DNA of 64,000 bases. Source: an uncultured Acidimicrobiia bacterium (GTDB lineage Bacteria > Actinomycetota > Acidimicrobiia > Spongiisociales > UBA5794). The notes beneath the pieces were generated by a model. The model did not search any database. It was not told the origin of the DNA and was given only the letters and a program-made list of their open reading frames with translations. Shown here piece by piece: positions 777 to 45,593 of the stretch. Position numbers and translations under genes: made by a program. Position 1 is the first letter of the stretch, and each line of letters starts with the position of its first letter. The DNA is taken from positions 355,668 through 419,667 of the forward strand of contig CAWBVU010000005.1 in the NCBI GenBank assembly GCA_963792405.1, written 5' to 3'.

Positions 777-1553
777 ATGACGCCGCCGAAGGCGCCCGTC
801 GTCGGCACACCCGTGTCGCTCACCTCCTACGACGAGGTGATCGCCGCATTGGCCGAGCCCCCTGGAGACCGTGCGGCGACGGTGGCCGTGTGCAACGTCC
901 ACTCGGTGATGTCTGCCCGCAATGACGAACGATTGGCGAAGGCGATCGCAGGTGCAGATATCGCCACACCCGACGGAGTCCCGATCGTGTGGGCACTGCA
1001 GTGGACGACGGATCGGAGCGATCAGGAGCGGGTGTACGGGCCCGAGCTGATGCGGCGTGCGCTCCTCTCGTCCGACGGAGGTCTCCGCCACTACCTGTAT
1101 GGATCCACACCTGAGACCCTGGATCTGCTCCAACGCAGGATCAGCGAGCTCGCCCCCGGCGCCGAGGTGGTCGGCGCGGACTCCCCTCCGTTTCGACCAC
1201 TGACCGACGACGAGGAGGAGGCCGCGCTCGAACGCATCCGCACGAGCGGTGCCAACGTCGTGTGGATCGGGCTCGGCATGCCGAAGCAGGAGCTCTGGAT
1301 GGACAGCGTGGCTCCCCGCCTTCCCGGCGTCACCCTCGTCGGCGTGGGTGCCGCGTTCGACTTCATCGCAGGCACGAAGGCCCAGGCACCACCATGGATG
1401 CAGAAGGCAGGGCTCGAGTGGTTGTTCAGGCTGGTCCACGAGCCCCGACGCCTGTGGCGACGCTACATCTGGAACAACCCCGCCTACCTCGTCCTGCTCG
1501 CCCGTCAGGTCGTCACATCACGCCTGACCTCCCGCCGACGGGGAGCCGACTGA
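777..1553 (+). CDS. WecB/TagA/CpsF-family glycosyltransferase (ManNAc-type transferase)
   Basis: 258 aa with family-typical motifs (YGPELMRR, WIGLGMPKQELWM, FRLVHEPRRLWRRY). First gene of a glycan locus. Confidence 0.8.
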   Translation: MTPPKAPVVGTPVSLTSYDEVIAALAEPPGDRAATVAVCNVHSVMSARNDERLAKAIAGADIATPDGVPIVWALQWTTDRSDQERVYGPELMRRALLSSDGGLRHYLYGSTPETLDLLQRRISELAPGAEVVGADSPPFRPLTDDEEEAALERIRTSGANVVWIGLGMPKQELWMDSVAPRLPGVTLVGVGAAFDFIAGTKAQAPPWMQKAGLEWLFRLVHEPRRLWRRYIWNNPAYLVLLARQVVTSRLTSRRRGAD

Positions 1554-1645
1554 CCCATGGCACCGGTGCGATCCGTGGACCGATGTCGCAGAGGCCCCGC
1601 CGAAGGCCAGGTGGGGCCATGCCGAGGCGTCGAGGGACGAACATC

Positions 1646-2842
1646 ATGAAGGTGGTCGTCTGCCACAACTACTTCCGCGAGCGTGGCGGCGAGGATCAGG
1701 TGTTCGAGGACGAGGTCGCGTTGCTGCGATCCGGCGGCCACGAGGTCATCGAGTACGTCAAGCGGAACAAGGAGATGACCGGGCCCCAGGTCGTGGGCTC
1801 CGCCATCCGAGCCCCGTGGAACACGACGTCGTACCGCGACGTGCGACGCATCGTGCAGGAGTCGGGCGCCGACATCGTCCACATCCACAACACGCTGCCG
1901 CAGCTGTCGCCCGCCGTGTTCAAGGCGGCACGCGACGGGGGAGCCGCCGTCGTCCACACCCTCCACAACTACCGATGGGCGTGCCCGAAGGGCATCCTGT
2001 TCAGGGAGGGGAAGGCATGCGAGGAGTGCCTCGGGCGGACGGTTCCGTGGCCGGCGGTCCGACACGGGTGCTACCGCGACAGCCGGACCGGGTCCGCCGT
2101 GGTGGCGACGACGCTCGCCGTGCACAACGCCCTCGGCACACCGCAGAGCGCAGACGCGTACGTCGCGGCGGGCACGTTCATCAAGGAGAAGATGACCGAG
2201 GCGGGCCTTCCCGGGGATCGCATCTACGTCAAACCCAACTTCCTCGATCCGGATCCGGGGGCCGGAGGGGGGACGGGTGACTACGCGATGTACCTCGGCC
2301 GCCTCTCACCGGAGAAGCGGATCGACACGCTCCTCGCCGCATGGGAACTGCTCCCCGAGCCGATCCCCCTGAAGATCTCCGGTGACGGGCCGCTGCGCCC
2401 CATGGTGGAGGCCGCGGCGGCAACGCACCCGCACATCGAGTACCTCGGCTTCGCCCCGAAGGACGACGTGAACCGCCTCCTCGGGGAGGCGCGGGTGCTC
2501 GTGTTCACGTCCGGCACCTACGAGGCACAGCCCCTGACGATCCTCGAGACGTTCGCCAAGGGCACGCCCGTCATCGCGGGACGCCTCGGGGCGATGCAGG
2601 GGATGATCGAACCGGGGCGGACAGGATGGCTGTTCGAGCCCGGCGATGCCGCAGACCTCGCCCGCGTCGTCACCGAGGCCTTCGCCTCACCTTCCCTCCT
2701 CGCCTCGTTGCGCCCCCAGGTGCGCGACCATTTCGAATCGACCTACACGATCGCTAAGAACCTCGATCGACTGGTCGATATATACGGGCACGCGATCGAT
2801 CATCGCAACCAACGGACAGCGGACATGGGGAGTGGCAGATGA
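1646..2842 (+). CDS. GT4-family glycosyltransferase with N-terminal Cys-rich motif
   Basis: Start MKVVVCHNYFRERGGEDQ with a GAGGGA RBS about 10 nt upstream. Contains HNYR, CPKG...CEEC and a C-terminal GT4 fold (EAQPLTILETFAKGTPVIAG). The upstream part of ORF 1262..2842 is non-coding. Confidence 0.8.
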   Translation: MKVVVCHNYFRERGGEDQVFEDEVALLRSGGHEVIEYVKRNKEMTGPQVVGSAIRAPWNTTSYRDVRRIVQESGADIVHIHNTLPQLSPAVFKAARDGGAAVVHTLHNYRWACPKGILFREGKACEECLGRTVPWPAVRHGCYRDSRTGSAVVATTLAVHNALGTPQSADAYVAAGTFIKEKMTEAGLPGDRIYVKPNFLDPDPGAGGGTGDYAMYLGRLSPEKRIDTLLAAWELLPEPIPLKISGDGPLRPMVEAAAATHPHIEYLGFAPKDDVNRLLGEARVLVFTSGTYEAQPLTILETFAKGTPVIAGRLGAMQGMIEPGRTGWLFEPGDAADLARVVTEAFASPSLLASLRPQVRDHFESTYTIAKNLDRLVDIYGHAIDHRNQRTADMGSGR

Positions 2843-3579
2843 GAGCAGTGATCCTGGCGGGCGGCAAGGGCACACGCCTTGCGCCCTACACCATCACCTT
2901 CCCGAAACCGCTCGTCCCCGTCGGTGACATGCCGATCCTCGAGATCGTGATCCGTCAGCTGAGCGCTGCGGGCTTCGACCACGTGACCCTGGCCGTGGGC
3001 CATCTCGCCGAGCTCATCGAGGCGTACTTCGGGGATGGCAGCCGTTGGGGCATCACCATCGACTACTCCCGGGAGGACCAACCCCTCGGCACGGTCGCAC
3101 CGATCAAGCTGATCCCCGACCTTCCCGAGCACTTCCTGGTGATGAACGGCGACGTGCTCACCAGCCTGCCGTATCGCTCACTGTTCGACGGCCACGTCAC
3201 CTCGGGTGCGCAGTTCACGATCGCCGTCCACCGCCTCAACGTGCAGATCGACTACGGCCTGATCGAGTTCGACGGTCGCCTGAGGGTGACCGGGTATCGG
3301 GAGAAGCCCACGTTCCCCGGCGACGTGTCGATGGGCGTGTATGTGTTCTCGCGGGAGGCACTCGATCTCATCCCCGAGGGGGAGTACATGGACATCCCGA
3401 CGCTCGTGACGAGGCTGGTCGCGGAGGGCCGCGAGGTGAGGGCATCACTGACGGACTGCCGGTGGCTCGACATCGGTCGCCAGGAGGACTACGCACGGGC
3501 CATCGCCTCGTTCGACACCCTGCGGGCCGAGTTCCTTCCCATCACCGAGACGTCCACCGCGGGAGAGGAGACCACATGA
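2839..3579 (+). CDS. Sugar-phosphate nucleotidyltransferase (NTP_transferase family)
   Basis: MRAVILAGGKGTRLAPYT...PKPLVPVG motif. ATGA overlap with the upstream gene suggests translational coupling. Confidence 0.8.
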   Translation: MRAVILAGGKGTRLAPYTITFPKPLVPVGDMPILEIVIRQLSAAGFDHVTLAVGHLAELIEAYFGDGSRWGITIDYSREDQPLGTVAPIKLIPDLPEHFLVMNGDVLTSLPYRSLFDGHVTSGAQFTIAVHRLNVQIDYGLIEFDGRLRVTGYREKPTFPGDVSMGVYVFSREALDLIPEGEYMDIPTLVTRLVAEGREVRASLTDCRWLDIGRQEDYARAIASFDTLRAEFLPITETSTAGEETT

Positions 3580-4538
3580 ACGTCCTCGTCATCGGAGGTG
3601 CGGGCTACGTCGGCTCTCCCCTCGTGTACCAGCTCTGGCGCGACGGCCACTCGGTGACCGTCCTCGACGTGCTGATGTTCGGAGGCGAGTCGCTGCTGCC
3701 CCTCGCCGGGGAAGACCGCTTCCGCCTGGTCGCGGGCGACCTGAGGTCCGAGGCCGTGCTCGACGAGGTGGTACCCGGACAGGATGCGATCGTGCTCCTC
3801 GGCGCCATCGTCGGCGAGCCTGCGAGCAACCGCGACCCCGAGCTGACGGTCTCGACGAACCTGCACGGCTCGGTGGCGGTCCTCGATGCCGCCAAGCGGC
3901 ACGGCGTGCCGAGGTTCGTGTTCGCCAGCACGTGCAGCAACTACGGCATCTCCGACGCCGACGGTCCCATCGCGGAGGACGCTCCGCTCATGCCCCTGTC
4001 GCCCTACTCCGAGACGAAGGTCGCCGCCGAGGAGATCATCATCGGCGCTGCGGGCGACGGCTTCCACCCCACGGTGCTGAGGCTCTCGACGGCGTTCGGG
4101 CTCTCTCCCCGCATGAGGTTCGACCTGCTCGTCTCCGACTTCACCGCCGCCGCCATCAACGACGGGAAGATCGTCATCTTCGGGGAGCAGTTCTGGCGGC
4201 CCTTCGTGCACGTCCAGGACATCGCCAAGGCCATCCGCCTCGTCCTCGAGGCGGACCCGGGGCTCGTGTCCGGTGAGGTCTTCAACGTGGGTTCGAATCC
4301 GAACAACGTGCAGAAGCAGACACTCGGCGAGGCGGTCCAGCGTTTGGTGCCGGGCACGGAGCTCGAGTTCGTCGTCCGCACCGAGGACCCGCGCTCGTAC
4401 CGCGTCGACTTCACCAAGATCGGCGAGGTCCTCGGGTTCACGGCCGACTGGTCCGTCGACGATGGGATCCGCGAACTCGCCGTCGCCCTCGAGCAGGGGG
4501 TCTTCAAGGACGTCGGCGATCCCCGCTACCACAACTGA
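3576..4538 (+). CDS. NAD-dependent epimerase/dehydratase (SDR family)
   Basis: MNVLVIGGAGYVGS Rossmann motif and YSETK catalytic motif. ATGA overlap with the nucleotidyltransferase. The true start is inside ORF 3045..4538. Confidence 0.8.
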   Translation: MNVLVIGGAGYVGSPLVYQLWRDGHSVTVLDVLMFGGESLLPLAGEDRFRLVAGDLRSEAVLDEVVPGQDAIVLLGAIVGEPASNRDPELTVSTNLHGSVAVLDAAKRHGVPRFVFASTCSNYGISDADGPIAEDAPLMPLSPYSETKVAAEEIIIGAAGDGFHPTVLRLSTAFGLSPRMRFDLLVSDFTAAAINDGKIVIFGEQFWRPFVHVQDIAKAIRLVLEADPGLVSGEVFNVGSNPNNVQKQTLGEAVQRLVPGTELEFVVRTEDPRSYRVDFTKIGEVLGFTADWSVDDGIRELAVALEQGVFKDVGDPRYHN

Positions 4539-4540
4539 CC

Positions 4541-5767
4541 GTGGAGGCCCACACGATGCCGACGTCATCTGACATCGTCGTGATCGGAGGTGGCCTCGTC
4601 GGCCTCGCCACCGCCCACGCGCTCGCATCGAGCGCACCGGACGCCTCGATCACGGTGGTGGAGGCGGAGGGGGGCGTCGCACGACATCAGTCCGGCCGCA
4701 ACAGCGGGGTCCTGCACTCGGGTGTCTACTACGCGCCGGGTTCACACAAGGCGACGATGTGCACCGACGGGCGGCGTCGCATGGAGGCGTTCTGCGACGA
4801 GCACGGCGTCCGGTGGGAGCGCACGGGGAAACTGATCATCGCAACCCGCCCCGAGGAGGTCGAGCAGCTCGATGGCCTGCTCGCCCGTGGTCGCGCCAAC
4901 GGCCTCGACGGGCTCGAGATCGTCGACGAGGCAGGGATCCGGGCCATCGAGCCCCACGCGACAGGCCTTGCGGCCCTCGTGGTGCCGCAGGCGGGGATCG
5001 TGGACTACAACGGCGTCGCCCACCGGCTCGTCGACCTCCTTCGCTCGTCGGGTGACACGGTGCTGACCGGCTTCCGCGTCGCCGCCATCGATCGCACCGT
5101 CGAGGGCTTCGTCCTCACCTCCGATCGCGGCGATCGCGTCACGGCCGGCTACCTCGTCAACTGTGCGGGCCTCCATTCCGATCGCATCGCCCGGATGGCG
5201 GGAGCGGATCCTTCCGTGCAGATCGTGCCCTTCCGGGGCGAGTACTACGTCCTCGACCCGTCACGAGCCCACCTCGTGCGCAGCCTCGTCTACCCCGTGC
5301 CGGATCCCCGGTTCCCGTTCCTCGGCGTGCACTTCACACGGCGGATCGACGGGAGCGTGGAGGTGGGGCCCAACGCCGTGCTCGCGCTGGGTCGGCATCA
5401 CTACCGGGGCGAGGGAGGCGCCAACCTCCGCGATACCCGCGAGATGATCGGTTCGAGGGCTCTGTGGGCGCTCGGGCGGAAGTACTGGCGCACCGGCTCG
5501 AAGGAGGCGATCCGCTCCAAGAGCAAACGCCTCTATGCGAAGGCGGCGAAGGCGCTCATCCCAGAGGTCGAGGCGAGTGACCTGCGCAGGGGCGGCTCGG
5601 GGATCCGTGCCCAGGCCCTCGGTGACCACGGTGCACTCCTCGACGACTTCGCCCTCGAGCAGACCGAGCGCGCCCTCCACGTGCTCAACGCCCCGTCACC
5701 GGCGGCCACCGCGAGCCTGACGATCGGCAGGGAGATCGCCGACCGGGTGCTCGCCGCGACCCGCTGA
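4541..5767 (+). CDS. FAD-dependent oxidoreductase (L-2-hydroxyglutarate oxidase LhgO-like)
   Basis: DIVVIGGGLVGLATA dinucleotide-binding motif; 408 aa. The real start may be the Met at 4556. Confidence 0.7.
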   Translation: MEAHTMPTSSDIVVIGGGLVGLATAHALASSAPDASITVVEAEGGVARHQSGRNSGVLHSGVYYAPGSHKATMCTDGRRRMEAFCDEHGVRWERTGKLIIATRPEEVEQLDGLLARGRANGLDGLEIVDEAGIRAIEPHATGLAALVVPQAGIVDYNGVAHRLVDLLRSSGDTVLTGFRVAAIDRTVEGFVLTSDRGDRVTAGYLVNCAGLHSDRIARMAGADPSVQIVPFRGEYYVLDPSRAHLVRSLVYPVPDPRFPFLGVHFTRRIDGSVEVGPNAVLALGRHHYRGEGGANLRDTREMIGSRALWALGRKYWRTGSKEAIRSKSKRLYAKAAKALIPEVEASDLRRGGSGIRAQALGDHGALLDDFALEQTERALHVLNAPSPAATASLTIGREIADRVLAATR

Positions 5768-5782
5768 GCGGCCGCACGGGCC

Positions 5783-6952
5783 TCAGGGCCGCTGGGGCCC
5801 CCCGGTCACGACCTCCTCATAGACGCCCTCGAGCCTGGCGAGGGCTGAAGGCACGGCATAGGTCGTCTCGTAGCGTCGGCGCGCCTCGGCTCCTGCCGCG
5901 TCGACGTGCCCATCGTCGGACAGGCCCCTGATGGCCTCCACCCACTCGTCGAGCGATCCGGGCTTTGTGAGCTGCGCGGCCCCTGCATCACCCGTCACCT
6001 CCCGTCGCGGACCCAGGTCGTTGGCCACCACCGGAACCCCGGCGGCGAGTGCCTCGACGAGGCTGAGGCCCAGCGTCTCGTAGTAGAGGGAGGGGAACAC
6101 GAGCGCCCTCGCCGATCGGAGCGTCTCCATCACCGCCGCATGGTCGAGCCAGCCGATGAACCGCACGCCTCGGATCCTGCGCTCGTCGAACGTCGAGAGC
6201 ATCGGACCGGTCCCGATCACGGTGAGCTCGAGATCACTGCCCGCCTGCTGCCAGGCGTCGAGCAGCAGGTCGAGGCCCTTCCCCTCCGCGATCCTCCCGA
6301 TGTACACGACCTCGTCGGATTCCGACGGTGCGTTGAGGCGAGGACCAGGATCAGGGATGAGCGGAGGGACCACACGTATGCGATCCCCGGGGATGCCGGA
6401 GCGCTCGAGGACGGCACCGGCGAAGTCGCTCGTGACGATGAAGCGATCGACGTTGCGCGTCCAGGTGCCGAGCGACCGGTTGAGGGCGATCGTGGTGGCG
6501 GCGACGAGCGATTCGGCCGCCGAGCCCCTGTAACAGCGATGCGCGACGGCACTCCACGGATGGGATCCGACGCAGTCGGTGCAGGGTGCGCCATCACGCC
6601 ACAGCACACCGTTCGCACAGACGAGGCGGTAGTTGTGGACCGTCATCACGACGGGCACGTCGGCCCTCCCGAGCGCGGAGAAGACGGATGGCGTCCACCG
6701 GTACCACGTGTTGTGGACATGGGCGATGTCGGGCCGATGGTCCGACAGGAGCCGGCCGATGGTGCGAGCACCCCCGGGACCCCACGGGGCGAGGGGAAGG
6801 AGCCTCATCTGATCGAGGCGGGAGGACGGATTGGAGGTGCGAGCCCCGACGACCGTGTGGCCATCAGCCCTGAGTGCATCGGCTTCGATCTCGACGAGGC
6901 GGTCCTCACCCCCGTGCTGGAGGTAGAGGTTGTGGACCTGCAGGACACGCAT
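5783..6952 (-). CDS. GT4-family glycosyltransferase, paralog of 1646..2842
   Basis: MRVLQVHNLYLQHGGED, HNYRLVCANG...CTDC and GT4 C-terminal motifs. Same unusual Cys-rich N-terminus as the gene at 1646. Confidence 0.8.
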   Translation of the reverse strand: MRVLQVHNLYLQHGGEDRLVEIEADALRADGHTVVGARTSNPSSRLDQMRLLPLAPWGPGGARTIGRLLSDHRPDIAHVHNTWYRWTPSVFSALGRADVPVVMTVHNYRLVCANGVLWRDGAPCTDCVGSHPWSAVAHRCYRGSAAESLVAATTIALNRSLGTWTRNVDRFIVTSDFAGAVLERSGIPGDRIRVVPPLIPDPGPRLNAPSESDEVVYIGRIAEGKGLDLLLDAWQQAGSDLELTVIGTGPMLSTFDERRIRGVRFIGWLDHAAVMETLRSARALVFPSLYYETLGLSLVEALAAGVPVVANDLGPRREVTGDAGAAQLTKPGSLDEWVEAIRGLSDDGHVDAAGAEARRRYETTYAVPSALARLEGVYEEVVTGGPQRP

Positions 6953-7012
6953 ATCGATCCGCTACCTCGCTCCCTCCGACATCACTCGCCATGGGGACCG
7001 GGCGACGCGCTG

Positions 7013-10000
7013 CTACCCAAGCCCCATCTGGCCGGAGATCGGCAGCCAGTTGGAGAGGCCCCCGACCCATTGCGCATCGGCCACTCCCGCCGTATTGGTG
7101 TATCGGAAGTACATCGTCGTGGTTGAGGGGCGGAACAGCGCAGGCGAGAAGATCGAGTCGCCCGTCCAGTCACCCGCGACGAGCCGATCGTCGGGGTCGC
7201 CGTAGATGAACTGGTTGTCCGCGTTGCCCTGCGTGTGGGAATTGCGGAAGTACACCAGCCCGGTCGACTCACGATGCAACCCGACCGTCTCGGTCCCGTT
7301 CCCATCGAAGTCACCCACGAACGGTTTGTCCCCGGGATTCCCGAACACGTACGAGAAGTCCGCCGCCCCCAGTCCGCCATCGTTGGCACCGAGCTTGTTG
7401 ATGATGTAGAACGTCTGGTTCGACGGACGGTAGATCGACACCGTGTCACAGCCGTCACCGTCGAAGTCACCCGCGATCGGGACATCACCGGGATTCCCGA
7501 AGAAGAACCTGATGTCACCCGGTCCCTGCGTGTTCGTGTCCCTCAGGTACACGTACCCGTCGGACTGGCGGTACATGCCGGGCGTCTCGATCCCATCACA
7601 GTTCCAGTCACCGTAGATGGGGTAGTCGCCTGGGTTCCCGAAGTAGAACTGGGCGGCGAGGGCGCCGGCGCTGTTGTACAGATGCCAGAGGCCCTGCGTC
7701 GGGTCGACGAGGCCGACCGTGTCGCCGCCTCCGCCAACGGGCCCCATGCCCTGGATGGACACGGCCGCGGTCCCGAGGCCGGTACCCGCCTCGTCGGCCA
7801 CGTTCGCGGACACCAGATACAGGCCCTCCTGGCCATATGCATGGGTCCGTTCGAAGGTCCGCGTTCCGACAGGCGACACGGCGAAGGAGGTCTGCGTGCC
7901 ATCACCCCAGGAGAGCACGACGTTGTGGATGTCGGCGACCCCGGGGTCGGTGAAGGTGACCTTCGCGGTGACGGACTCGTTCGTGGTGAACTCGAACGAA
8001 GGCACACCGCCTGTCTTCGAGGTTGCGACGGAGACTGTCGGCACGACGTTGTCGTTGTCGAGGATCGACCCCGTTGCCGTGGCATCGACGATGGCGGCGA
8101 GCGTGTTCGGCGACAGCTCGAGCGTGAGGGTCTCGGTGATCTCGTCGACGGCGTCGTCGACGATCGGGACCGACGACCTGCTGCGGAGCCCCTCCCGGCG
8201 AGGAAGGTCAGCACGCCCGGTGGTGGGTGTGAAATCGGCGCCTGCCACGGCCGTTCCTCCCACGGCGGTGTAGGTCACCGTCGCCGTCTGGCCGGACGCA
8301 GGCGACAGCACGACGGTGAAGGCGACACCCGCGCTTCCCTCGGCCGCGGGCTGGGCGTCGAGGACCGACAGACCGGCAGGCCCGTCGTCGTCGACGATGT
8401 TCATGGTGTGGCTGGGGTTCGCTCCGATGGCTCCACCGGCGGACAGGGAAGCGGGTTGGAGCGTCAGGGTGATCGTCTCGTTCGGCTCATCCGTCGTATC
8501 GGCGAGGATGGTCACCGGCACGTTCACGATTGCCCCGCTCGCGGAACCTGTCGGGAAGCTCACGAGGAACGGCGACGTGAACTGGAAGTCGATGCCCAGT
8601 GTGGCGCTCGTGGCGGTCAGCGCAGCCTGCACGGTTGCGGGCGACGCAAGCGTCCGTCCCGCTCCGATCGTGAGCACCACAGGGACGTTGACGACGGTCG
8701 ATCCCACCTGCCCTTCATCAGGAGAACTCGTGGGTGACTGGAAGGTGACACTGAAGTCGTCGTCAGTGATGTTGGCCGTCACCGACGCCACGACCGCACC
8801 GTCATACCCGCCACCCGAAGCCGCATGCGTGATCGTCCCCGCGTGAGGTGTGGCCTCGATGGCGGTGTCATTCACTGCCGTGACCGTCACCGTCTGAGCG
8901 CTACTCCAGTTCGCCGTCGTAAACGACAACGACGGCACCGACGTCGTCACCTGCGCATTCGGACTGATGGAAACCGTCACCGTCGACGACGGCTGAGAGT
9001 TCAGCCTCACCGTATACGAACCGGTCGCGCCCCCCTCGGCCACCGCCACCGACGAAACCGACACCGTCACACCGATGCTGTCGTTGTCCGTGATGTTCGC
9101 CGTCACCGACGCCACACCCACACCGTCATACCCGCCACCCGAAGCCGCATGCGTGATCGTCCCCGTATGCGCACCCTCAGCGACCGCATCGTCCACCGCC
9201 GTGACCGTCACCGTCTGAGCGCTACTCCAGTTCGCCGTCGTAAACGACAACGACGGCACCGACGTCGTCACCTGCGCATTCGGACTGATGGAAACCGTCA
9301 CCGTCGACGACGGCTGAGAGTTCAGCCTCACCGTATACGAACCGGTCGCGCCCCCCTCGGCCACCGCCACCGACGAAACCGACACCGTCACACCGATGCT
9401 GTCGTTGTCCGTGATGTTCGCCGTCACCGACGCCACACCCACACCGTCATACCCGCCACCCGAAGCCGCATGCGTGATCGTCCCCGTATGCGCACCCTCA
9501 GCGACCGCATCGTCCACCGCCGTGACCGTCACCGTCTGAGCGCTACTCCAGTTCGCCGTCGTAAACGACAACGACGGCACCGACGTCGTCACCTGCGCAT
9601 TCGGACTGATGGAAACCGTCACCGTCGACGACGGCTGAGAGTTCAGCCTCACCGTATACGAACCGGTCGCGCCCCCCTCGGCCACCGCCACCGACGAAAC
9701 CGACACCGTCACACCGATGCTGTCGTTGTCCGTGATGTTCGCCGTCACCGACGCCACACCCACACCGTCATACCCGCCACCCGAAGCCGCATGCGTGATC
9801 GTCCCCGTATGCGCACCCTCAGCGACCGCATCGTCCACCGCCGTCACCGTCACCGTCTGGGGGACATCCCAGTCCCCCGTCGTGAAGGTCAGCGACGGCT
9901 TGTCCACCGTCACCTGTGCATCCGGCGAAACCGAAATCGTCACGGTGTCGGTGGGGAGCTCGAGAAGAACGACGTCATACGAATCCGTCCCGCCCTCCGT

Positions 10001-10156
10001 CATGGCGAGGGGCGAGCCTGTTACCGAGACACCGGGCACAGCGCGCGCGGGGTCGGGTGGGGCGATGGCGATCAGGGAGGCGACCAGGCCGAAGATGAGG
10101 GCGAGGCGCAGGCTGGCGGACACGCCAATGCGGTGGAACGGCGGTGTCTTGGTCAT
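7013..10156 (-). CDS. Large secreted cell-surface repeat protein (signal peptide, Calx-beta/Ig-like tandem repeats, FG-GAP-like repeats)
   Basis: 1047 aa. N-terminal signal MTKTPPFHRIGVSASLRLALIFGLVASLIAIAPPDPARA. Three identical 107-aa repeats (VAEGAHTGTITHAASGGGYDGV...TVTAVDDA) plus diverged flanking copies. The C-terminal half carries five FGNPGD.P..GDWDGDG..T.G.YR blades. Confidence 0.8.
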   Translation of the reverse strand: MTKTPPFHRIGVSASLRLALIFGLVASLIAIAPPDPARAVPGVSVTGSPLAMTEGGTDSYDVVLLELPTDTVTISVSPDAQVTVDKPSLTFTTGDWDVPQTVTVTAVDDAVAEGAHTGTITHAASGGGYDGVGVASVTANITDNDSIGVTVSVSSVAVAEGGATGSYTVRLNSQPSSTVTVSISPNAQVTTSVPSLSFTTANWSSAQTVTVTAVDDAVAEGAHTGTITHAASGGGYDGVGVASVTANITDNDSIGVTVSVSSVAVAEGGATGSYTVRLNSQPSSTVTVSISPNAQVTTSVPSLSFTTANWSSAQTVTVTAVDDAVAEGAHTGTITHAASGGGYDGVGVASVTANITDNDSIGVTVSVSSVAVAEGGATGSYTVRLNSQPSSTVTVSISPNAQVTTSVPSLSFTTANWSSAQTVTVTAVNDTAIEATPHAGTITHAASGGGYDGAVVASVTANITDDDFSVTFQSPTSSPDEGQVGSTVVNVPVVLTIGAGRTLASPATVQAALTATSATLGIDFQFTSPFLVSFPTGSASGAIVNVPVTILADTTDEPNETITLTLQPASLSAGGAIGANPSHTMNIVDDDGPAGLSVLDAQPAAEGSAGVAFTVVLSPASGQTATVTYTAVGGTAVAGADFTPTTGRADLPRREGLRSRSSVPIVDDAVDEITETLTLELSPNTLAAIVDATATGSILDNDNVVPTVSVATSKTGGVPSFEFTTNESVTAKVTFTDPGVADIHNVVLSWGDGTQTSFAVSPVGTRTFERTHAYGQEGLYLVSANVADEAGTGLGTAAVSIQGMGPVGGGGDTVGLVDPTQGLWHLYNSAGALAAQFYFGNPGDYPIYGDWNCDGIETPGMYRQSDGYVYLRDTNTQGPGDIRFFFGNPGDVPIAGDFDGDGCDTVSIYRPSNQTFYIINKLGANDGGLGAADFSYVFGNPGDKPFVGDFDGNGTETVGLHRESTGLVYFRNSHTQGNADNQFIYGDPDDRLVAGDWTGDSIFSPALFRPSTTTMYFRYTNTAGVADAQWVGGLSNWLPISGQMGLG
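8880..9850. repeat. Perfect in-frame tandem repeat, 321 bp x ~3, inside the surface-protein gene
   Basis: Identical DNA blocks (e.g. ctgagcgctactccagttcgccgtcgtaaacgacaacgacgg recurs at ~8894, ~9214 and ~9536). Likely copy-number hot-spot. Confidence 0.85.
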
Positions 10157-10252
10157 TCGTAAACCCCCCGGGCAGATTCGGCACCCTCAGGTGGCAATCT
10201 AGTCGGCGCCGCCACTAGCGGCATTGGGGAGGTGACGTTTCGCGGTGTGAAC

Positions 10253-11632
10253 TCAGGCCTCGTCGACCGACGCCGACCTGGAGTAGCGCCCGATGCCCTC
10301 GTAGGCGAGGCCGGCGTCCTCGACGGCGTCGTGGTCGAGGGCGTTGCGCCCGTCGATCACGACGTGGCCCCGCATGAGCCGCGCCATGCGGTCGTAGTCG
10401 AGGTCGAGGAACTCGGGCCACTCGGTGAGGAGCACGACGGCGTCCGCTCCCTTCACACACTCGTAGGGATCCTCGAAGATGTCGACGTGGTCCATGTCGG
10501 GCAGCTCCCTGACCATCGGGTCCGAGGCCCGGATGAGCACGCCCTTCTCCTCGAGCGACCGGATGATGGAGAGGGCCGGTGCATCTCGCAGGTCGTCGGT
10601 TCCCGGCTTGAACGCAAGGCCGAGGAGGGCGATGCGGCTGCCCCGCAGCGGGCGCAGGTAGTTCTGGAGCTTGCGCACGACGACGTTGCGCTGGTTCTTG
10701 TTGACCCGCTTGACCGCCTCGAGGATCAGCGGCTCGATCCCCTGCTCACGGGCCATCGACGCCAGGGCATCGATGTCCTTGCCGAAGCAGGACCCGCCCC
10801 AGCCGACGCCGGCGTTGAGGAACTTCGGGCCGATGCGCGAGTCGAGGCCGATCGCGTAGGCGACATCCTCGACGTCGGCATCGAGCCATTCGCAGATGTT
10901 GGCGATCTCATTGATGAAGCTGATCTTCATCGCGAGGAAGGCGTTCGCGGCGTACTTGATCGTCTCCGCCGTTGCCCTGCCGGTCTTGACGAGGGTCGGC
11001 TTGCGCGTCGGGTCGCCACCCTCGAAGGACTGCGACAGGATCGGCTCGTACACGTCGGCGACCTTCTCGACCGCCTTCGGGTCGTCGCCGCCCACCACGA
11101 CCCGATCCGGCTGGAGGAAGTCCTCGACGGCAGCGCCCTCGCGGAGGAACTCCGGGTTGCTCACCACCCTCACGACGCCCGGATCGACCCCATCGGGAAG
11201 CGCGGAGGTGATGGTGGCCTCGAGCCAGTTGCCGCTTCCCACGGGGACGGTGCTCTTCGTCACGATGATGTGGGGCGTCCTCAGGGCGGCCCCGATCGAT
11301 CGCGATGCGGCGGCAACGGAGCTCATGTCGGGATGGCCGTTCGTTCCCGGTGGCGTGTCGACGCACAGGAACACGATCTCGGACTGGTTCATGGCCAGTT
11401 GGTAGTCACTCGTGAACGACAGGCGACCCGACGACAACGCCGACGTGAGACGCTCCTCGAGGCCCGCCTCGTAGAAGGGGACCCTGCCCTCCCTCAGTGA
11501 GGCGAGCTTGCCCTCGTCGATCTCCACGCTGATCACTCGCCGGCCGAGGTCCGCCAGACACACCGCCACCACGGTGCCGACGTATCCGCTACCGACCACC
11601 GCGATTCCGGGGGTGTCCCTTGGTTCCGTCAT
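10253..11632 (-). CDS. ugd: UDP-glucose 6-dehydrogenase (UDP-glucose/GDP-mannose dehydrogenase family)
   Basis: Start MTEPRDTPGIAVVGSGYVG at 11632 with GGAAGG RBS. Motifs CVDTP and GGSCFGKD. The upstream 75 codons of ORF 10253..11854 are not coding. Confidence 0.8.
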   Translation of the reverse strand: MTEPRDTPGIAVVGSGYVGTVVAVCLADLGRRVISVEIDEGKLASLREGRVPFYEAGLEERLTSALSSGRLSFTSDYQLAMNQSEIVFLCVDTPPGTNGHPDMSSVAAASRSIGAALRTPHIIVTKSTVPVGSGNWLEATITSALPDGVDPGVVRVVSNPEFLREGAAVEDFLQPDRVVVGGDDPKAVEKVADVYEPILSQSFEGGDPTRKPTLVKTGRATAETIKYAANAFLAMKISFINEIANICEWLDADVEDVAYAIGLDSRIGPKFLNAGVGWGGSCFGKDIDALASMAREQGIEPLILEAVKRVNKNQRNVVVRKLQNYLRPLRGSRIALLGLAFKPGTDDLRDAPALSIIRSLEEKGVLIRASDPMVRELPDMDHVDIFEDPYECVKGADAVVLLTEWPEFLDLDYDRMARLMRGHVVIDGRNALDHDAVEDAGLAYEGIGRYSRSASVDEA

Positions 11633-11919
11633 TGCTGCCTTCCAAGCCCTACGCCGCTCGTCTGCGCCGTGGGATCGAGTGTAGATGATTCGACCACTCT
11701 CGGCAATACCTTGACCACATTGCGTGGGTTCATGTTCGAGGCTCGCTCCTGGCTGAGCGGAATGGTATCCCCGCTCCCGGCACGCACTCGCCATCGATGT
11801 CCGATTTCGCGTCCACGGCAGCTGGGAGTCCTCGATGCCGGGTCTCCGCCGCACGCCGCGCCGCGTGGTCGATCGCGGAACCCCCCTCGGTCACACCCTG
11901 CCGGTCGCCCGGCAGGAGC

Positions 11920-12618
11920 TCATGCCCCGCGCTTGCCCCCGAGCATCGCCGACGGCGTGCGGAGGATGATGCGGAGATCGTTCATGAACGTGATGTTGTC
12001 GACGTACTCGATGTCGATGTCGGTCGCCTCGTGCATCGGCACGTGTCCACGTGCGGAGATCTGCCAGAGGCCCGTGAGACCGGGCTTGACCTCGTGCCGA
12101 CGGTGCTGCCACTCCTCGTAGCGAGCAACGACCTGCGGCAACTCGGGCCGCGGGCCCACCAGGCTCATGTCGCCCAATGCCACGTTCCAGAACTGTGGGA
12201 TCTCGTCGAGGCTCCACTTGCGGAGGAACCGGCCGATGTCGGTGTGCCGGGGATCATCCGCGGACTTGTGGTTGAAGCGTCGGTCCGGGTGATCGATCGC
12301 CTGCATGGCGGCGCGGCGGTCCTGGCGCATCGTGCGGAACTTGTAGACCTCGAACTCCTCGCCGAATCGACCGAGGCGCACCTGGCGGAAGATCGCGGGC
12401 CGTCCGATGGACAACCAGATCAGGGGAACGACGACGGCGACGATCGGAAGGGTGACGACCGTGAGCACGACACCCCCGAGGCGGTCGAGTCCCGGCTTGA
12501 CGAACCGCTCGTAGAACCCGGCCCCATGGACCAGCGGAACCACCCGCGGTCCTGTGTACTGCGATTCGCCGTCGACGCCACGAAGTGCATCGACGTTTCT
12601 TTCGACGTCCGCCACCAT
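11920..12618 (-). CDS. Priming sugar transferase (bacterial sugar transferase family, WcaJ/CpsE C-terminal domain type)
   Basis: One transmembrane segment followed by YKFRTM...[21 protein letters not shown] motifs. Confidence 0.8.
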
Positions 12619-24481: not shown

Positions 24482-26609
24482 ATGCGACCACCACGCATCC
24501 GACGACCACGGCTCTCCGACCTGCTCACCCTCGCCGTCTTCTCGATGATCCTCACCGCCGCGGTGCTCTACTCGCCCGGGTGGACCGTCGGGGGGAGAGC
24601 GGAGGCCACCGCCCCCGTCGACCTCGCCAACGTCGCTGCATCGCTCCAACCCTTCATCCCCAAGCCGGTCCTCGCGGCGTCCGTGCCCGCGGGTGCCCAC
24701 GGTGTGGGCCTGGTCGACACCGAGCAGGGCGTCTGGCACCTCCGCACCCGCGACGGCGACCCCGCCTCGTTCTTCTACGGCAATCCAGGCGACTACCCGT
24801 TCACGGGCGACTGGGACTGCAACGGCACCGACACGCCCGGCCTCTACCGCCAGTCCGACGGGTACGTGTACCTGCGCAACTCGAACACGCAGGGCCCGGG
24901 TGAGATCAAGTTCTACTTCGGCAATCCGGGCGACTTCCCGCTGTCTGGCGACTTCAACGGCGACGGCTGCGACACCCTCTCCCTGTACCGGCCGTCCGAG
25001 CAGCGGATCTATGTGATCAACACGCTCGGGTCGAACGACACCGGCCTCGGTGAGGCCGAGTACTCGTACATCTTCGGGAACCCCGGTGACAAGCCGTTCA
25101 CCGGCGACTTCAACGGCAACGGCATCACCACGGTCGGCCTGCACCGTGAGTCGACGGGCTTCATGTACTTCCGCAACACGAACACCCAGGGCGTGGCCGA
25201 CTACCAGTTCTACTTCGGCGACCCCGGCGACCGCCTCATCGCAGGCGATTGGACCGGTGCGGGCGAGGACTTCCCCGCCGTGTACCGGCCGTCGAACCGC
25301 ACCGTGTACATGCGGTTCTCCAACACGCAGGGCAATGCCGACGAGTTCTACCAGTGGGGCGAATCGCCCTACATCCCCGTGGCGGGGTTCTTCGGGCCGC
25401 TCGACAGCGGCGTGTCGGTGAGCGTCTCGGGCGCCCCGACCGAGCTCAAGTACGCCATCGAGTCCTTCTACCAGGACCAGCAGGCGGCCCCGCACATCCC
25501 CGAGGGGCTGCGCACCAACCTGCTCGGCCTCCGCGACTATCCGAAGGTGAAGATCGCCTCCGGTTCGGCCACCACCTCCACGGCGTACGGCAAGGGCGTG
25601 GCGGTGGCCACCGTGAACGGCGACACGTTGCTGGCGGTCACGGACAACGGCTGGGAGTGGCGCATCGTCGGGAGCGAATCCGTTCGGGCTGGGCCGCACC
25701 CTGTACTACGGCGGGAACGCCCGCCACGTGGCGATGATCGGCACCGACTGGCAGCAGTCCGGCTCCACATGGCCGACCGACGTGACCCGCACCAACGCCG
25801 ATTCGCTGCACCTCTACACGGTGAACCCGGTGGCGGGGGCGGGCGCCGTCTCGGGCTTCCCGCGCTCGACGTACATCACCACCCCGTTCGGCTACACGCG
25901 TGTCGCCAAGACCACGGTCGACGGCGGCCCGTCGAACACCGTCACCTCGCTCCGGATGGAGACGGGCCTCCCGGTGGAGGGCTACTTCCTCATCGGCATG
26001 GGCAGCTTCAACCCTGGCGCCCCTCCGGGGTTCTCGGACCTGGTCGACGCCTACGGCGGCTTCCCCTTCCTCGTGCCGTACGAGCCCCTCGGTGGCGTGC
26101 CGGCGGTGGGCGACACCTTCCTCAATGGCACCGAGGCGATCGCCTGGGCCCGTGAGCGCCAGAACTCCCCCCACGGCGGGTCGGACCGCACCCTCAACCA
26201 GGGTCAGATGATCAAGGCGGCGCTGGCGACGATCCAGCCGCTCGGGATGTCCCAGATCCCCAACCTGCTGTCCATCATGGACGGGTTCGTGTACACGGAC
26301 CTGTCGATCGACCAGGTCCTCACCTTTGCGGCCACCGTGTACACGGTCAACACCGGCGCGATGCCGACCATGACACCCCAGGACCTCATCAACTCGGGAC
26401 ATGTGGCGCCGAACAAGATCGTCCCGACGCACGGCCCGTACAACCAGAACCCCGGCACGCTGCCCAACGTGCTGATCAAGGGCTGCCTGTACACACCGGA
26501 CGGTGTCACCTTCGGCTACTCGCTCACCGCGCAGAACAAGGCGCTGTTCACCGACCTCGCCGACGGCGTCCTCGACACCGCACCCTGGATCTGTGACGAC
26601 GGCACCTAG
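24482..26609 (+). CDS. LCP (LytR-CpsA-Psr) family glycopolymer ligase with N-terminal TM anchor and FG-GAP-like repeats; frameshift ~25675
   Basis: TM anchor, then five FGNPGD...GDW/FDCNGTDT blades paralogous to the surface protein. The LCP domain reads in the +1 frame (25728..26609): FLIGMGSF...FLNGTEAIAWARERQ. Confidence 0.65.
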
Positions 26610-26663: not shown

Positions 26664-27245
26664 ATGCGCTCGCTCGCCCTCATCCTCATGCTCATGCTCG
26701 TCACCGCCTGCACCCAGCAGGCGGACGACGACGTCACCGACGCCACCCTGACGACGACCTCCACAGCCGCGGGCGCCACGACGACCACCGGTGAATCGTC
26801 CACGACCACGACCGGCGGGACGACCACCACCACGACGCGCCCGTCGGGCGGCACGACCACCACCACCCGGGCGACGACGACGACCTCCTCGCCGTCGACG
26901 ACCACGACCACCATCCCCGCGGACAACCTCCCGCCCACCGTGGAGATCCTCGCCCCCGCCAACCTGTCCTCCCACACAGCCGCCTACGACGCAGCCCTCG
27001 GGGACTTCGGCACCTACCTGACGCTTCGAGCGACGGCGAGCGACCCCAACGGTGACCCCGTCGTGATCCGCTGGTCCGCCTCCACCGAGGGCGGACTCGG
27101 CACCGGCACCGAGATCACGGCGTGGTTCTCGACCAATGGCTCGGACGCCACCCAGCCCATCATCACCGCCACCGCCGTCGACCGGTGGGGCGTCACCTCC
27201 TCCGCCTCGGTCAACATCATCGTCTGGATCCCCTCCGACACCTAG
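26664..27245 (+). CDS. Lipoprotein with Thr-rich linker and Ig-like domain
   Basis: Signal peptide with lipobox LVTAC. 50% Thr linker. C-terminal beta-rich domain. Confidence 0.6.
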   Translation: MRSLALILMLMLVTACTQQADDDVTDATLTTTSTAAGATTTTGESSTTTTGGTTTTTTRPSGGTTTTTRATTTTSSPSTTTTTIPADNLPPTVEILAPANLSSHTAAYDAALGDFGTYLTLRATASDPNGDPVVIRWSASTEGGLGTGTEITAWFSTNGSDATQPIITATAVDRWGVTSSASVNIIVWIPSDT

Positions 27246-27535
27246 GCAGGAAGAGCGAGCACAGCGAGCCCTGCCTGTCTCTCCCCGCGGGAGAGACGCG
27301 GAGCGCAGCGACGCAGAGAGGGCCGCACCCTCGCAGACGCGGAGCGAAGCGACGCAGAGAGGGCTTCCTGCTTTGTCTCTCCCCGCGGGAGAGACGCGGA
27401 GCGAAGCGACGCAGAGAGGGCCGCAGTTCTGAGACCTCTCGAAGGACGCCTCCCGCACCGCACTCCCCCCTCTGCCCTCCGGGCATCTCCCCCAAAGGGG
27501 AGAAGGAAGCACAGGGGTCTTGGATCGGATGTGTG
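27244..27535. repeat. Composite hairpin repeat cluster C
   Basis: H1-H1-H2 modules, immediately upstream of the DUF559 gene. Confidence 0.85.
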
Positions 27536-27554
27536 ATCTTGGTACTCGTGGGCC

Positions 27555-27905
27555 ATGCACGATCGAGAACAGCTGCGCAGCTTCGCGAAGGAAATGCGGT
27601 CGGATCCGACCCTCGGCGAGCGGATCTTGTGGGACGAGCTCCGAGCGAGACGACTCGGCGTGAAGGTGCGTCGCCAGCATCCCGTCGGCCCGTTCATCCC
27701 CGACTTCGTCTGCTTCGCACGCCGCCTGGTCATCGAGGTCGACGGCGACTCCCATGAGGATCCGGAGCGGGATGCACGCCGCGATCAGTGGTTCCGGGAC
27801 AACGGCTGGCGTGTCCTGCGGTTCACAGACGACGAGGTGATCGACGAGCTCGACATGGTCCTCGACACCATCTGGCACGCCCTCCACGCCAACGAGGAGA
27901 AGTGA
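27555..27905 (+). CDS. DUF559 endonuclease-domain protein (Vsr/PD-(D/E)xK-like)
   Basis: 116 aa with the DUF559 hallmark ...RQHPVGPFIPDFVCF...LVIEVDGDSHE...WRVLRF. Confidence 0.75.
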   Translation: MHDREQLRSFAKEMRSDPTLGERILWDELRARRLGVKVRRQHPVGPFIPDFVCFARRLVIEVDGDSHEDPERDARRDQWFRDNGWRVLRFTDDEVIDELDMVLDTIWHALHANEEK

Positions 27906-28455
27906 GCGAGCGCAGCGAGCACCGCCCAAGGATGAGGAGTGAGCGCAGCGAGCACCTTGGATGTCTCTCCCCGCGGGAGAGACGCGGAGCGAAGCGACGC
28001 AGAGAGGGCCGCAGTACTGGAAGCGCCGCTCCACAGACGCCTCCCGCGTCGTAGCTCCCCCCTCTGCCCTTCGGGCATCTCCCCCAAAGGGGGAGAAGGA
28101 GAAGGAGATAGACGCCTCCCGCACCGCACTCCCCCCTCTGCCCTTCGGGCATCTCCCCCAAAGGGGGAGAGGGAAGCATGGGTGCGGGCTCTCCCCGCAA
28201 AGGGGAGAGAGAGCGATGGCGAGCGTGCCCCGCAGGGAGAAGACGCGTTCGCGCATCTCGCCCCCAAGGAAGGATGAGCGAGCGAAGCGAGCACCATGCC
28301 GTCTCTCCCCGCGGGAGAGACGCGGAGCGAAGCGACGCAGAGAGGGCCGCAGTACTGGAAGCGCCTCCCACAGACGCCTCCCCGCTCTGCCCTCGGGCAT
28401 CTCCCCCAAAGGGGAGAAGGAAACAGGGTTCGGGCATCTCCCCCAAGAGGGGAGA
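27905..28455. repeat. Composite hairpin repeat cluster D
   Basis: H1/H2/linker modules. Starts at the stop codon of the DUF559 gene and runs to the RBS of the next gene. Confidence 0.85.
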
Positions 28456-28461
28456 AGTAGC

Positions 28462-28869
28462 ATGAGTCGACCGAGTGAGAGGCACGGGATGAGGCTCAAT
28501 GCGATCGGGATCGTGTGTGCGGATGTCGAGGCGTCGCTGCGGTTCTACCGTCTGGTGGGCGTGCCGTTCGGCGAGTTCGATCCCGACAACGGGCACTACG
28601 ACGCCGACCTCGGCGGCTTCCGGCTCATGCTCGACTCGCATGAGGTGATGGAGGCATTCAACCCGCATTTCTCCCCGCCGAAGGGCAACGACCGCATCAG
28701 CCTCGCGGTGGAGTGCGCATCCCCCGCAGCGGTCGACGAGGCCCACGCCGCGGTCGTCGATGCGGGGTTCGTGTCGGTACGGGAGCCCTTCGACGCCTTC
28801 TGGGGACAGCGGTATGCGACCGTGGCGGACCCCGACGGCAACCACGTGGACCTCTACGCCGCCATGTGA
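28462..28869 (+). CDS. VOC/glyoxalase-family protein
   Basis: MSRPSERHGMRLNAIGIVCADVEASLRFYRLVG. GGAGAAG RBS. The real start is inside ORF 27961..28869. Confidence 0.7.
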   Translation: MSRPSERHGMRLNAIGIVCADVEASLRFYRLVGVPFGEFDPDNGHYDADLGGFRLMLDSHEVMEAFNPHFSPPKGNDRISLAVECASPAAVDEAHAAVVDAGFVSVREPFDAFWGQRYATVADPDGNHVDLYAAM

Positions 28870-35214: not shown

Positions 35215-35712
35215 GTGACACGAACGCCAATGGGCCGGCTCCCCTCTGCCCTCCGGGCACCTCCCCAAAGGGGAGAGGGAAGCAGAGGTACGGGCACCTC
35301 CCCCAGAAGCAAGGATGAGCGAGCGCAGCGAGCCCAATGCTGTCTCTCCCCGCGGGAGAGACGCGGAGCGAAGCGACGCAGAGAGGGCCGCACCCTCGCA
35401 GACGCGGAGCGAAGCGACGCAGAGAGGGCCGCAGTACCGACGACCTCTGGAAGGACGCCTCCCGCACCCCACTCCCCCCTCTGCCCTCCGGGCATCTCCC
35501 CCAAAGGGGAGAAGGAAGCAAGGTGCGGGCACCTCCCGCGAGGAAGGATGAGCGAGCGCAGCGAGCCCAATGCTGTCTCTCCCCGCGGGAGAGACGCGGA
35601 GCGAAGCGACGCAGAGAGGGCCGCACCCTCGCAGACGCGGAGCGAAGCGACGCAGAGAGGGCCGCACCCTCGCAGACGCGGAGCGAAGCGACGCAGAGAG
35701 GGCCGCGGTGCT
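35215..35712. repeat. Composite hairpin repeat cluster F (its 3' end forms the left edge of the duplicated lasso cassette)
   Basis: H2-linker-H1-H1 modules repeated twice. The last 72 bp are also found at the duplication junction (40969-41040). Confidence 0.85.
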
Positions 35713-35729
35713 CCCGCTACGCTGATCGT

Positions 35730-36871: not shown

Positions 36872-37122
36872 GGCGATCCGACCACGCCATGGCCCGCGAG
36901 CTCGACGGCGAGATCATCATCCTCGACGTGCCGTCGGGCCGGTACTTCGGGATCAACGACGTGGGCGCCGTGGTGTGGGGGCTGCTCGACGGGACCCACG
37001 ACCGTGACGCCATCGTCGATGCGGTGACCGCCGAGTTCGACGTCGATCGGGACACCGCCGCGGCCGACCTCGATGCGCTCCTCGACCAGCTCGTCGACGC
37101 CGGCCTCGTGGTGGACCCGTGA
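36868..37122 (+). CDS. PqqD-family protein (lasso B1 leader-recognition element), copy 1
   Basis: 84 aa: ELDGEIIILDVPSGRYFGINDVGAVVWGLLDG...IVDAVTAEFDVD. Confidence 0.75.
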   Translation: MRRSDHAMARELDGEIIILDVPSGRYFGINDVGAVVWGLLDGTHDRDAIVDAVTAEFDVDRDTAAADLDALLDQLVDAGLVVDP

Positions 37123-40029: not shown

Positions 40030-40077
40030 GTCGCCCCACCTCAAGATCCATGGGAAATCGGCCGATGTCGGTACGGT

Positions 40078-40248: not shown

Positions 40249-40272
40249 GCGACCTGCCTCCCTGACCCCGAT

Positions 40273-41052: not shown

Positions 41053-41056
41053 TCGT

Positions 41057-45350: not shown

Positions 45351-45398
45351 GTCGCCCCACCTCAAGATCCATGGGAAATCGGCCGATGTCGGTACGGT

Positions 45399-45569: not shown

Positions 45570-45593
45570 GCCACCTGCCTCCCTGACCTCGAC

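Follow-up and report, generated by a model that had tools for sequence, protein, structure and literature searches.

What is a β-propeller doing inside an enzyme predicted to attach polymers to the cell wall? The question is raised by a gene at 24482..26609 on the forward (+) strand of a 64,000-nucleotide stretch of DNA from an uncultured Acidimicrobiia bacterium (positions 355,668 to 419,667 of contig CAWBVU010000005.1, assembly GCA_963792405.1), here called the window. A sequence-only reading of the window had proposed that the gene encodes an LCP-family ligase, that FG-GAP-like propeller repeats lie between its membrane anchor and its catalytic domain, that the same repeats occur in a giant surface protein encoded at 7013..10156, and that a +1 frameshift interrupts the gene. 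The shared repeats were taken as a sign of a common binding partner and of domain shuffling. On balance, we find it reasonably probable that this is an LCP enzyme whose accessory slot holds a lectin-type, envelope-anchoring propeller used throughout the lineage, with the frameshift probably an artefact.

The LCP enzyme and its propeller

LCP enzymes move polyprenyl-pyrophosphate-linked wall glycopolymers onto peptidoglycan. In the window (G+C, 67.7%), open reading frames (ORFs) 24482..26155 and 25728..26609 (both +) are two frames of a single gene. The sensible protein in the first ORF runs to ...NGWEWRIVGS near 25675, after which it continues in the second frame (...NPFGLGRTLYYGGNARHVAMIGTDWQQ...) to the stop at 26609. 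The gene, the second gene that carries the propeller and their parts are as follows (aa, amino acids; AF2, AlphaFold2; pLDDT, predicted local distance difference test).

24482..26609, + strand: gene for a predicted LCP-family glycopolymer transferase, 708 aa after removal of one base; split as deposited into ORFs 24482..26155 and 25728..26609
24512..24571, + strand: N-terminal hydrophobic segment, aa 11-30 (AF2 helix at aa 11-29; orthologue N-termini)
24701..25396, + strand: predicted five-bladed FG-GAP-like β-propeller, aa 74-305 (repeats, AF2, Foldseek)
24704-24835, 24836-24976, 24977-25132, 25133-25273 and 25274-25396, + strand: propeller repeat units
25412..25672, + strand: small α/β domain, aa 311-397, between the propeller and the LCP core (AF2 pLDDT >90; kept in orthologues)
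25670..25673, + strand: one extra base (GGGA; relatives have GGG or GGA, then GCG/GCC), causing a +1 shift
25794..26234, + strand: LCP catalytic core according to PF03816, aa 438-584 (structural domain ~25722-26357, ~aa 414-625)
26358..26609, + strand: C-terminal extension with a conserved Cys pair (in the orthologue alignment, C669 in most and C704 in all)
7013..10156, - strand: 1047-aa secreted repeat protein with a signal peptide, fn3-like, Calx-beta and PKD repeats, and a terminal propeller
7022..7717, - strand: second propeller copy, aa 814-1045, ending two residues before the stop (BLASTP, tblastn)

The repaired 708-aa protein matches PF03816 (LytR_cpsA_psr) at aa 438-584 with 35.1 bits, above the gathering score of 24.6, and a phmmer search of Protein Data Bank (PDB) sequences recovered Lmo1026 (2.7e-11), Lin1025, TagU (8e-08), TagV and Cps2A. 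An AF2 model of the whole protein, built on 20 orthologues, reached a pLDDT of 84.4 and a predicted TM-score (pTM) of 0.84. Foldseek comparison of its C-terminal part retrieved 3okz, 8qty, TagV (6uf3), TagT (6mpt) and LcpA (6uex) at E values of 2e-12 to 6e-11, with target TM-scores of 0.68-0.80 for the LCP structures matched and LCP-structure E values up to 1e-9. Moreover, D440 (the Asp of xADS), R461 (the Arg of PR(D/S)T), R557 and R559 (RxR) and D568-R569 are kept and align with TagU and Lmo1026, as do the Pro of PR(D/S)T and the first Arg of the GD..R segment. The PF03816 match and the LCP α/β fold identify the product as an LCP enzyme, as had been proposed. This identity is ordinary and already annotated in relatives, one orthologue being named 'MAG: LCP family protein [Acidimicrobiia bacterium]'. 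Glycopolymer transfer to peptidoglycan is a predicted role.

LCP proteins in general consist of an N-terminal hydrophobic segment, an extracytoplasmic accessory region and a catalytic domain (PMC7831098). The order of hydrophobic segment, propeller and LCP domain claimed at first sight was borne out, with the proviso that the segment at aa 11-30 may be a signal anchor or a long or cleavable signal peptide; in the linker after the hydrophobic helix, aa 40-42 form a conserved A-x-A motif. Compared with known LCP transferases (B. subtilis TagT/U/V, S. pneumoniae Cps2A, S. aureus LcpA and A. oris LcpA), the window enzyme shares PF03816, the α/β fold, the overall layout and the PR(D/S)T, RxR and D-R motifs. 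However, its accessory slot holds a 230-aa propeller and a small α/β domain instead of a Cps2A-type domain, it has no LytR_C domain, several canonical Arg are substituted, and identity to solved LCPs is 15-19%. Judged by its sequence, the enzyme belongs to a divergent LCP subfamily.

A word-index search with the whole enzyme as query returned 3,151 proteins. About 25 are full-length orthologues of ~700 aa at 36-77% identity, and the remainder match the module only, at 60-82% identity; the closest relative of the LCP protein (P0282) is intact and 92% identical. A second search of this kind, with the LCP part as query, yielded for the most part fragments. The suggestion that an LCP enzyme with an inserted propeller is unusual holds in one respect, as none of the architectures listed in a review of the family includes a propeller (PMC7831098), but the arrangement is conserved in ~25 intact orthologues and is not a one-off. 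Comparison with the syntenic orthologue L081 gave ratios of nonsynonymous to synonymous substitution (dN/dS) of 0.11 for the propeller, 0.17 for the middle domain, 0.27 for the LCP part downstream of the frameshift and 0.68 for the N-terminal segment. By this measure, the propeller is the most constrained portion of the enzyme.

The orthologues vary at their ends. P0025 carries three C-terminal CWB2 (PF04122) wall-binding repeats besides the propeller, P0047 begins with a lipobox (LVAASC), and P0024 has a short, cleavable-looking Sec signal peptide; in some distant orthologues, such short signal peptides replace the long hydrophobic helix. Judged by these features, the mode of tethering differs among lineages of the subfamily.

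A five-bladed module on many secreted proteins

In the LCP protein, the motif FxFGNPGD occurs at aa 97, 144, 196 and 243 (spacing 47, 52 and 47), with a degenerate fifth unit following. The consensus of 42 homologues is xGLYRxSxGxVYLRNxNTQGxADxxFxFGNPGDxPxxGD(W/F)(D/N)GDGxDT. An AF2 model of the module alone (pLDDT 93.7, pTM 0.89) contains twenty strands, arranged as five sets of four, and predicts that the module folds as a five-bladed β-propeller. The best Foldseek matches were ITFG2, UmbA4 (query TM-score 0.57), BBS9, Psathyrella velutina lectin (PVL), AAL2, Bap1 and integrin αV; for ITFG2, UmbA4, PVL and integrin αV, the probability was ~1.0 and the query TM-scores were 0.41-0.57. Tachylectin-2 (PDB 1tl2) was also among the nearest structures. 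PVL and AAL2 are N-acetylglucosamine (GlcNAc) lectins, and tachylectin-2 is an animal lectin for GlcNAc and N-acetylgalactosamine (GalNAc).

Sequence profiles capture the module poorly. The window copy has no Pfam match at E≤1 (PF01839 scores 7.4 bits against a cut-off of 22.1). When the 42 homologues were scanned singly, FG-GAP_3 was found in 17, counted at E≤10 (best 2.9e-7), and FG-GAP in 18 (best 0.0028). A single-blade profile matched, below threshold, the Ca2+ loop of integrin αV (VAVGDFNGDGID; GDFNGDGxD) and one UmbA4 blade. An NCBIfam search found no model for the module, nor does any Pfam-A model cover it. We conclude that the module is a distinct five-bladed family captured by no Pfam or NCBIfam model. 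The label "FG-GAP-like" that the repeats had received is right at the level of fold or superfamily, given the five AF2 blades, the Foldseek matches and FG-GAP_3 in 17 of 42 homologues.

Like the FG-GAP and FG-GAP_3 (VCBS) propellers of integrin α, ITFG2, PVL and V. cholerae Bap1, the module has an FxFG...GD(W/F)(D/N)GDGxD repeat, a DxDxDG-type loop, four-stranded blades and a fold like the integrin α N-terminus. It differs from them in having five blades of ~47 aa, where seven of ~60 aa are usual, and in its LYR.S.G..YLRN.NTQG.AD half-repeat, which has no counterpart in the Pfam models. Tachylectin-2 is more remote, with 11% identity, no detectable sequence similarity and no DxDxDG loops, and is not of FG-GAP type. 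Two Cys of the module, at positions 40 and 90 (blades 1 and 2), are nearly invariant, fitting an extracytoplasmic location.

A tblastn search of the window with the module found exactly two copies. Pairwise BLASTP of aa 75-305 of the LCP protein and aa 814-1045 of the 7013..10156 protein aligned 148 of 232 residues as identical (64%), colinearly and with one gap (E 7e-105), within the 60-70% first estimated. The second copy had been assigned to the C-terminal half of its host; it is C-terminal, but occupies only the last 22% of the protein. That protein is identical to a database entry (P0197). Its gene also includes an array of 3.4 copies of a 321-bp unit, 96% identical (8756-9859, -), which encodes near-identical 107-aa fn3-like repeats; such arrays are prone to assembly collapse or expansion.

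A low-complexity or chance motif, the possibility that had been named as fatal to a shared domain, is ruled out by the E value of 7e-105 over 232 colinear residues and by the confident fold: the unit is indeed very common, but it is a folded shared domain. Also ruled out is that the two window genes recently exchanged the domain or underwent gene conversion. The LCP copy is 87-92% identical to the propellers of LCP orthologues and 64% identical to that of the 7013..10156 protein, so the modules have diverged along with their host genes, with no sign of recent exchange.

When the module alone served as query in an exhaustive HMMER scan of 1.84 billion cluster representatives, matches came from 23,812 clusters at E≤1e-3; 15,287 of them passed E≤1e-10 and 2,892 passed E≤1e-30, the last set almost entirely from Acidimicrobiia metagenome-assembled genomes. 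In every case examined, the whole ~231-aa unit was present, and its position was terminal: it followed immediately on an N-terminal signal peptide or closed the protein, with 0-4 residues left before the stop. The first search list held 86 N-terminal and 34 C-terminal copies; a representative set held 92 C-terminal, 39 N-terminal (median start, aa 35) and 5 internal copies. Ordinary Sec signal peptides precede the N-terminal copies, and 67 of 81 complete proteins with a C-terminal module have a hydrophobic N-terminus.

The proteins that carry the module are diverse. Across 79 representatives, there were 49 partner Pfam families, including PD40, subtilase, Big_9, Calx-beta, cadherin-like, trypsin, PKD, NHL, LRR, metallophosphatase and β-helix domains; the first list added LmbE, peptidase M15, NPCBM, DUF3160 and a Bmp-type solute-binding protein. 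Mean identity among 120 copies from unrelated proteins and genomes was 70%. The best 80 loci in GTDB, searched with one genome per species, all come from metagenome-assembled genomes (MAGs), most labelled Acidimicrobiia or Actinomycetota. Among these 80, several MAGs hold at least 3-5 loci each, and 12 loci have 2-3 copies within 6.7 kb. Since the module occurs on thousands of clusters and with 49 partner families, its sharing does not specifically link the LCP enzyme with the 7013..10156 protein.

Some module-bearing proteins stand apart. One of the 79 representatives combines the module with a sulfate-permease membrane domain. Three giant proteins, P0121 (3432 aa), P0237 (1796 aa) and P0225 (1200 aa), contain 7-9 separate module matches each at ~35-39% identity, suggestive of tandemly arrayed, related propellers that lie outside the core family. 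Proteins of the P0027-P0045 type (for example P0027, 583 aa) consist of a signal peptide, a propeller up to 82% identical to the LCP copy and a conserved ~300-aa C-terminal domain; that domain has no Pfam match, and the window encodes no protein of this type.

The frame break in the LCP gene

The +1 frameshift first placed near 25675 is real in the sequence and consists of one extra base at 25670-25673. Orthologues read through the junction uninterrupted (...GWEW(R/K)(I/V)VGANP.GLGR...). At this point the window has ATC GTC GGG A GCG AAT, while L001 and L081 have GTC GGG GCG AAC, L083 has GTG GGT GCG AAC and L082 has GTC GGA GCC GAC. The gene is intact in the relatives P0282, L001, L081, L082 and L083, and the contig of orthologue P0001, which is syntenic with the window, encodes an intact 711-aa LCP protein. 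In the window itself, the 310 codons past the shift contain no stop and no second shift and keep all family-invariant residues.

The LCP gene is not the only broken gene in the window. The two copies of a 4.66-kb direct duplication (35642-40300 versus 40969-45621, +) are 97% identical, with single-base gaps at eight places. Both carry an Asn-synthase-like gene with one frame break, near 39448 in copy A and near 44315 in copy B, and in each case the other copy reads through the site; a syntenic relative has an intact 592-aa Asn-synthase-like gene. With the LCP gene included, the window has at least three single-base frame breaks. The duplicated unit is lasso-peptide-like, with NTP_transf_5, PqqD-like, Transglut_core3, HPr-kinase-like, and GATase_7 plus Asn_synthase genes.

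Orthologues of the LCP gene are broken at unrelated positions in other MAGs (P0014, P0016, P0019, P0021 and L005), as assembly errors would lead one to expect; L005 belongs to an MFD (Microflora Danica) bin whose contigs are several hundred kb long. Because two more genes in the window are broken and the closest relatives are intact, we consider an assembly indel error the most likely explanation, and with some confidence. A local out-of-frame patch also occurs at aa ~343-370 of P0002, and LCP orthologues are often miscalled in MAG assemblies.

The alternative that survives best is that the strain carries a genuine, recently inactivated pseudogene and does not make the LCP-propeller protein. 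Two observations speak for it and count against an artefact: the deposited 451-kb contig contains the extra base, with the 291-aa tail called separately as a gene, and the inserted A follows GGG, not a long homopolymer. We nevertheless regard it as unlikely in view of the two or more further single-base breaks within the same 64 kb, the stop-free downstream codons with their invariant residues, the dN/dS of 0.27 in this part, the intact closest relatives and the scattered breaks in other MAGs. Programmed frameshifting is ruled out: orthologues are in frame, other MAG copies are broken elsewhere and the site is not conserved. That the downstream ORF is expressed on its own from GTG 25728 was dismissed, as the product would have no export signal.

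What the propeller may bind

In the account that we favour, the propeller would be a lectin-type module, dependent on Ca2+, with a conserved glycan of the cell envelope as its ligand. The most plausible ligand would be an anionic secondary wall polymer, and binding of this kind would hold secreted proteins non-covalently at the cell surface. In the LCP enzyme, which the organism would make at full length if the frameshift is an artefact, the propeller would serve to retain or place the enzyme, either at the wall or on the polymer that is its substrate or product; the copy in the 1047-aa protein would act as a C-terminal anchor.

The distribution of the module resembles that of non-covalent wall anchors (SLH, CWB2, LysM, choline-binding and GW modules). 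These too are conserved modules at the ends of many unrelated secreted proteins, are present in numerous copies per genome and are functionally linked to the secondary polymers that LCP enzymes attach; P0025, an LCP orthologue, has both the propeller and CWB2. The fold of the module is wholly different from theirs, and its wall binding is a prediction drawn from the comparison. One solute-binding protein (P0082) has a plain Sec signal peptide, no lipobox Cys and the module straight after. Solute-binding proteins require a tether, which leaves the module as the only candidate.

The umbrella toxins of Streptomyces offer a precedent and a contrast. Their UmbA lectins (PDB 9oee, 8w20) resemble the module in fold only, and there is a structure of UmbA4 with teichuronic acid bound. 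They are hypervariable, with 20-30% identity between paralogues, and are diversified for different targets (PMC13274773). UmbA4 has six blades, sits on an inactive trypsin domain and is aimed at other species, whereas the module is highly conserved and occurs on ~50 kinds of protein, including a wall-assembly enzyme. A trypsin domain is lacking in both window proteins, and the surroundings of their genes showed no umb-like neighbours. Set against these diversified lectins, the uniformly high identity and low dN/dS of the module make a conserved ligand the simplest explanation.

The window also encodes machinery for a wall polymer, with the 7013..10156 gene in its midst:

777..12618, strand unspecified: wall-glycopolymer cluster enclosing the 7013..10156 gene, with a WecG/TagA glycosyltransferase, two GT4 glycosyltransferases, a nucleotidyltransferase (NTP transferase), UDP-glucose dehydrogenase and Bac_transf
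777-1553, + strand: WecG/TagA-family transferase (PF03808, 191 bits)
10253-12618, - strand: UDP-glucose dehydrogenase and Bac_transf priming enzyme

The gene content of 777-12618 suggests a linkage-unit-type wall polymer that contains uronic acid and would be teichuronic-acid-like. A wall polymer as the shared binding partner of both window proteins, as first suggested, fits this context and is plausible. In another genome, the orthologue P0008 lies head-to-head with genes for a WecA/TagO-like transferase, an epimerase, GT4 glycosyltransferases, Bac_transf and a polysaccharide deacetylase.

Several observations weigh against the favoured account. The LCP gene lies outside the polysaccharide cluster of the window, 12 kb away, among genes for a GDSL hydrolase, an MST/DinB protein and a Thr-rich lipoprotein. 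NCBIfam LCP models match the enzyme below their cut-offs (29.9 versus 62.3 for the TIGR00350 domain model), and three Arg that are canonical in LCP proteins of Firmicutes are replaced (GxDxR by GTDWQ, RxD by NAD(S), and the second Arg of RQDRQ by N, as TLNQ); its substrate chemistry may therefore differ. The best structural TM-score for the propeller is only 0.57, and searches of PDB sequences with the module and with the single-blade profile gave nothing significant. The propeller has no solved or characterised close relative, and its binding is something we infer. Finally, a trypsin domain accompanies the module in 4 of 79 proteins, as in the UmbA toxin lectins that target other cells.

This last observation favours a propeller that recognises foreign or environmental glycans, like a carbohydrate-binding module (CBM) or an UmbA lectin, in place of anchoring proteins to the cell's own envelope, and so does the outward-looking nature of its closest characterised structural relatives (UmbA4, tachylectin-2, PVL and AAL2). 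We find this improbable: the 60-75% identity of the module across unrelated proteins and genomes contrasts with the 20-30% among UmbA paralogues (PMC13274773), its partners are for the most part not glycoside hydrolases but proteases, adhesin repeats and a solute-binding protein, and fusion of such a lectin with a wall-assembly enzyme would make little sense. More doubtful still is a protein-protein docking or self-assembly unit (in a surface lattice, or for a common membrane or S-layer partner) with a purely structural Ca2+, even with β-propellers often serving as protein scaffolds, ITFG2, BBS9 and integrin αV among the top fold matches and DxNxDG-type loops that match, sub-threshold, the integrin Ca2+ loop (GDFNGDGxD).

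If the propeller is an own-envelope anchor, its ligand may, as speculation, be the LCP-attached anionic polymer itself, an idea made attractive by the nearby TagA-type and UDP-glucuronic acid (UDP-GlcA) genes and by the precedent of UmbA4 with teichuronic acid. We tentatively extend this to a wider proposal, for which the odds are no better than modest: the propeller could be the general non-covalent anchor of Acidimicrobiia, of a new structural class, binding a conserved anionic wall polymer of teichuronic-acid type made by TagA/UDP-GlcA clusters such as that at 0.8-12.6 kb, with the polymer-attaching LCP enzyme recruited to, or retained on, its own product by the same module. Where an orthologue has no more than a cleavable signal peptide, the module might even stand in for the usual membrane anchor.

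The region downstream of the LCP gene has features of its own. The lipoprotein gene directly downstream (26664-27245, +) encodes a lipobox (LVTAC), a long Thr-rich linker and a ~100-aa Ig-like C-terminal domain; the syntenic contig L081 has a gene for 195 aa in the same position. The LCP and lipoprotein genes may form an operon. Beyond them, the non-coding interval 27250-28500 is dense with short palindromic interspersed repeats, among them GTCTCTCCCCGCGGGAGAGAC...GCAGAGAGGGCCGCA in 5 copies and GGCATCTCCCCCAAAGGGGGAGA in 6 copies, which look like elements of the repetitive extragenic palindromic (REP) or miniature inverted-repeat transposable element (MITE) type.

Searches of the literature for Acidimicrobiia with FG-GAP or propeller proteins, and for LCP proteins with a β-propeller, found nothing relevant. 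Relative to that literature, two findings are new: that the five-bladed module forms a family of its own, very large, restricted to a lineage and lacking a domain model, and that it occupies the accessory slot of an LCP enzyme. Acidimicrobiia abound in soils and sediments and in both fresh and sea water, and are mostly uncultured; to our knowledge, next to nothing has been established about their envelope biology. A single ~231-aa module marks a large share of their secreted proteins. At a minimum, it merits its own domain model, through which thousands of "hypothetical proteins" would gain an annotation. If it is a wall anchor, it would also allow the surface proteome to be predicted from MAGs by a rule based on sequence, fusions of the module to a reporter would be a handle for finding and purifying the cognate wall polymer, and the enzyme described here would be the first LCP ligase to bear the wall-binding module of its own downstream "clients."

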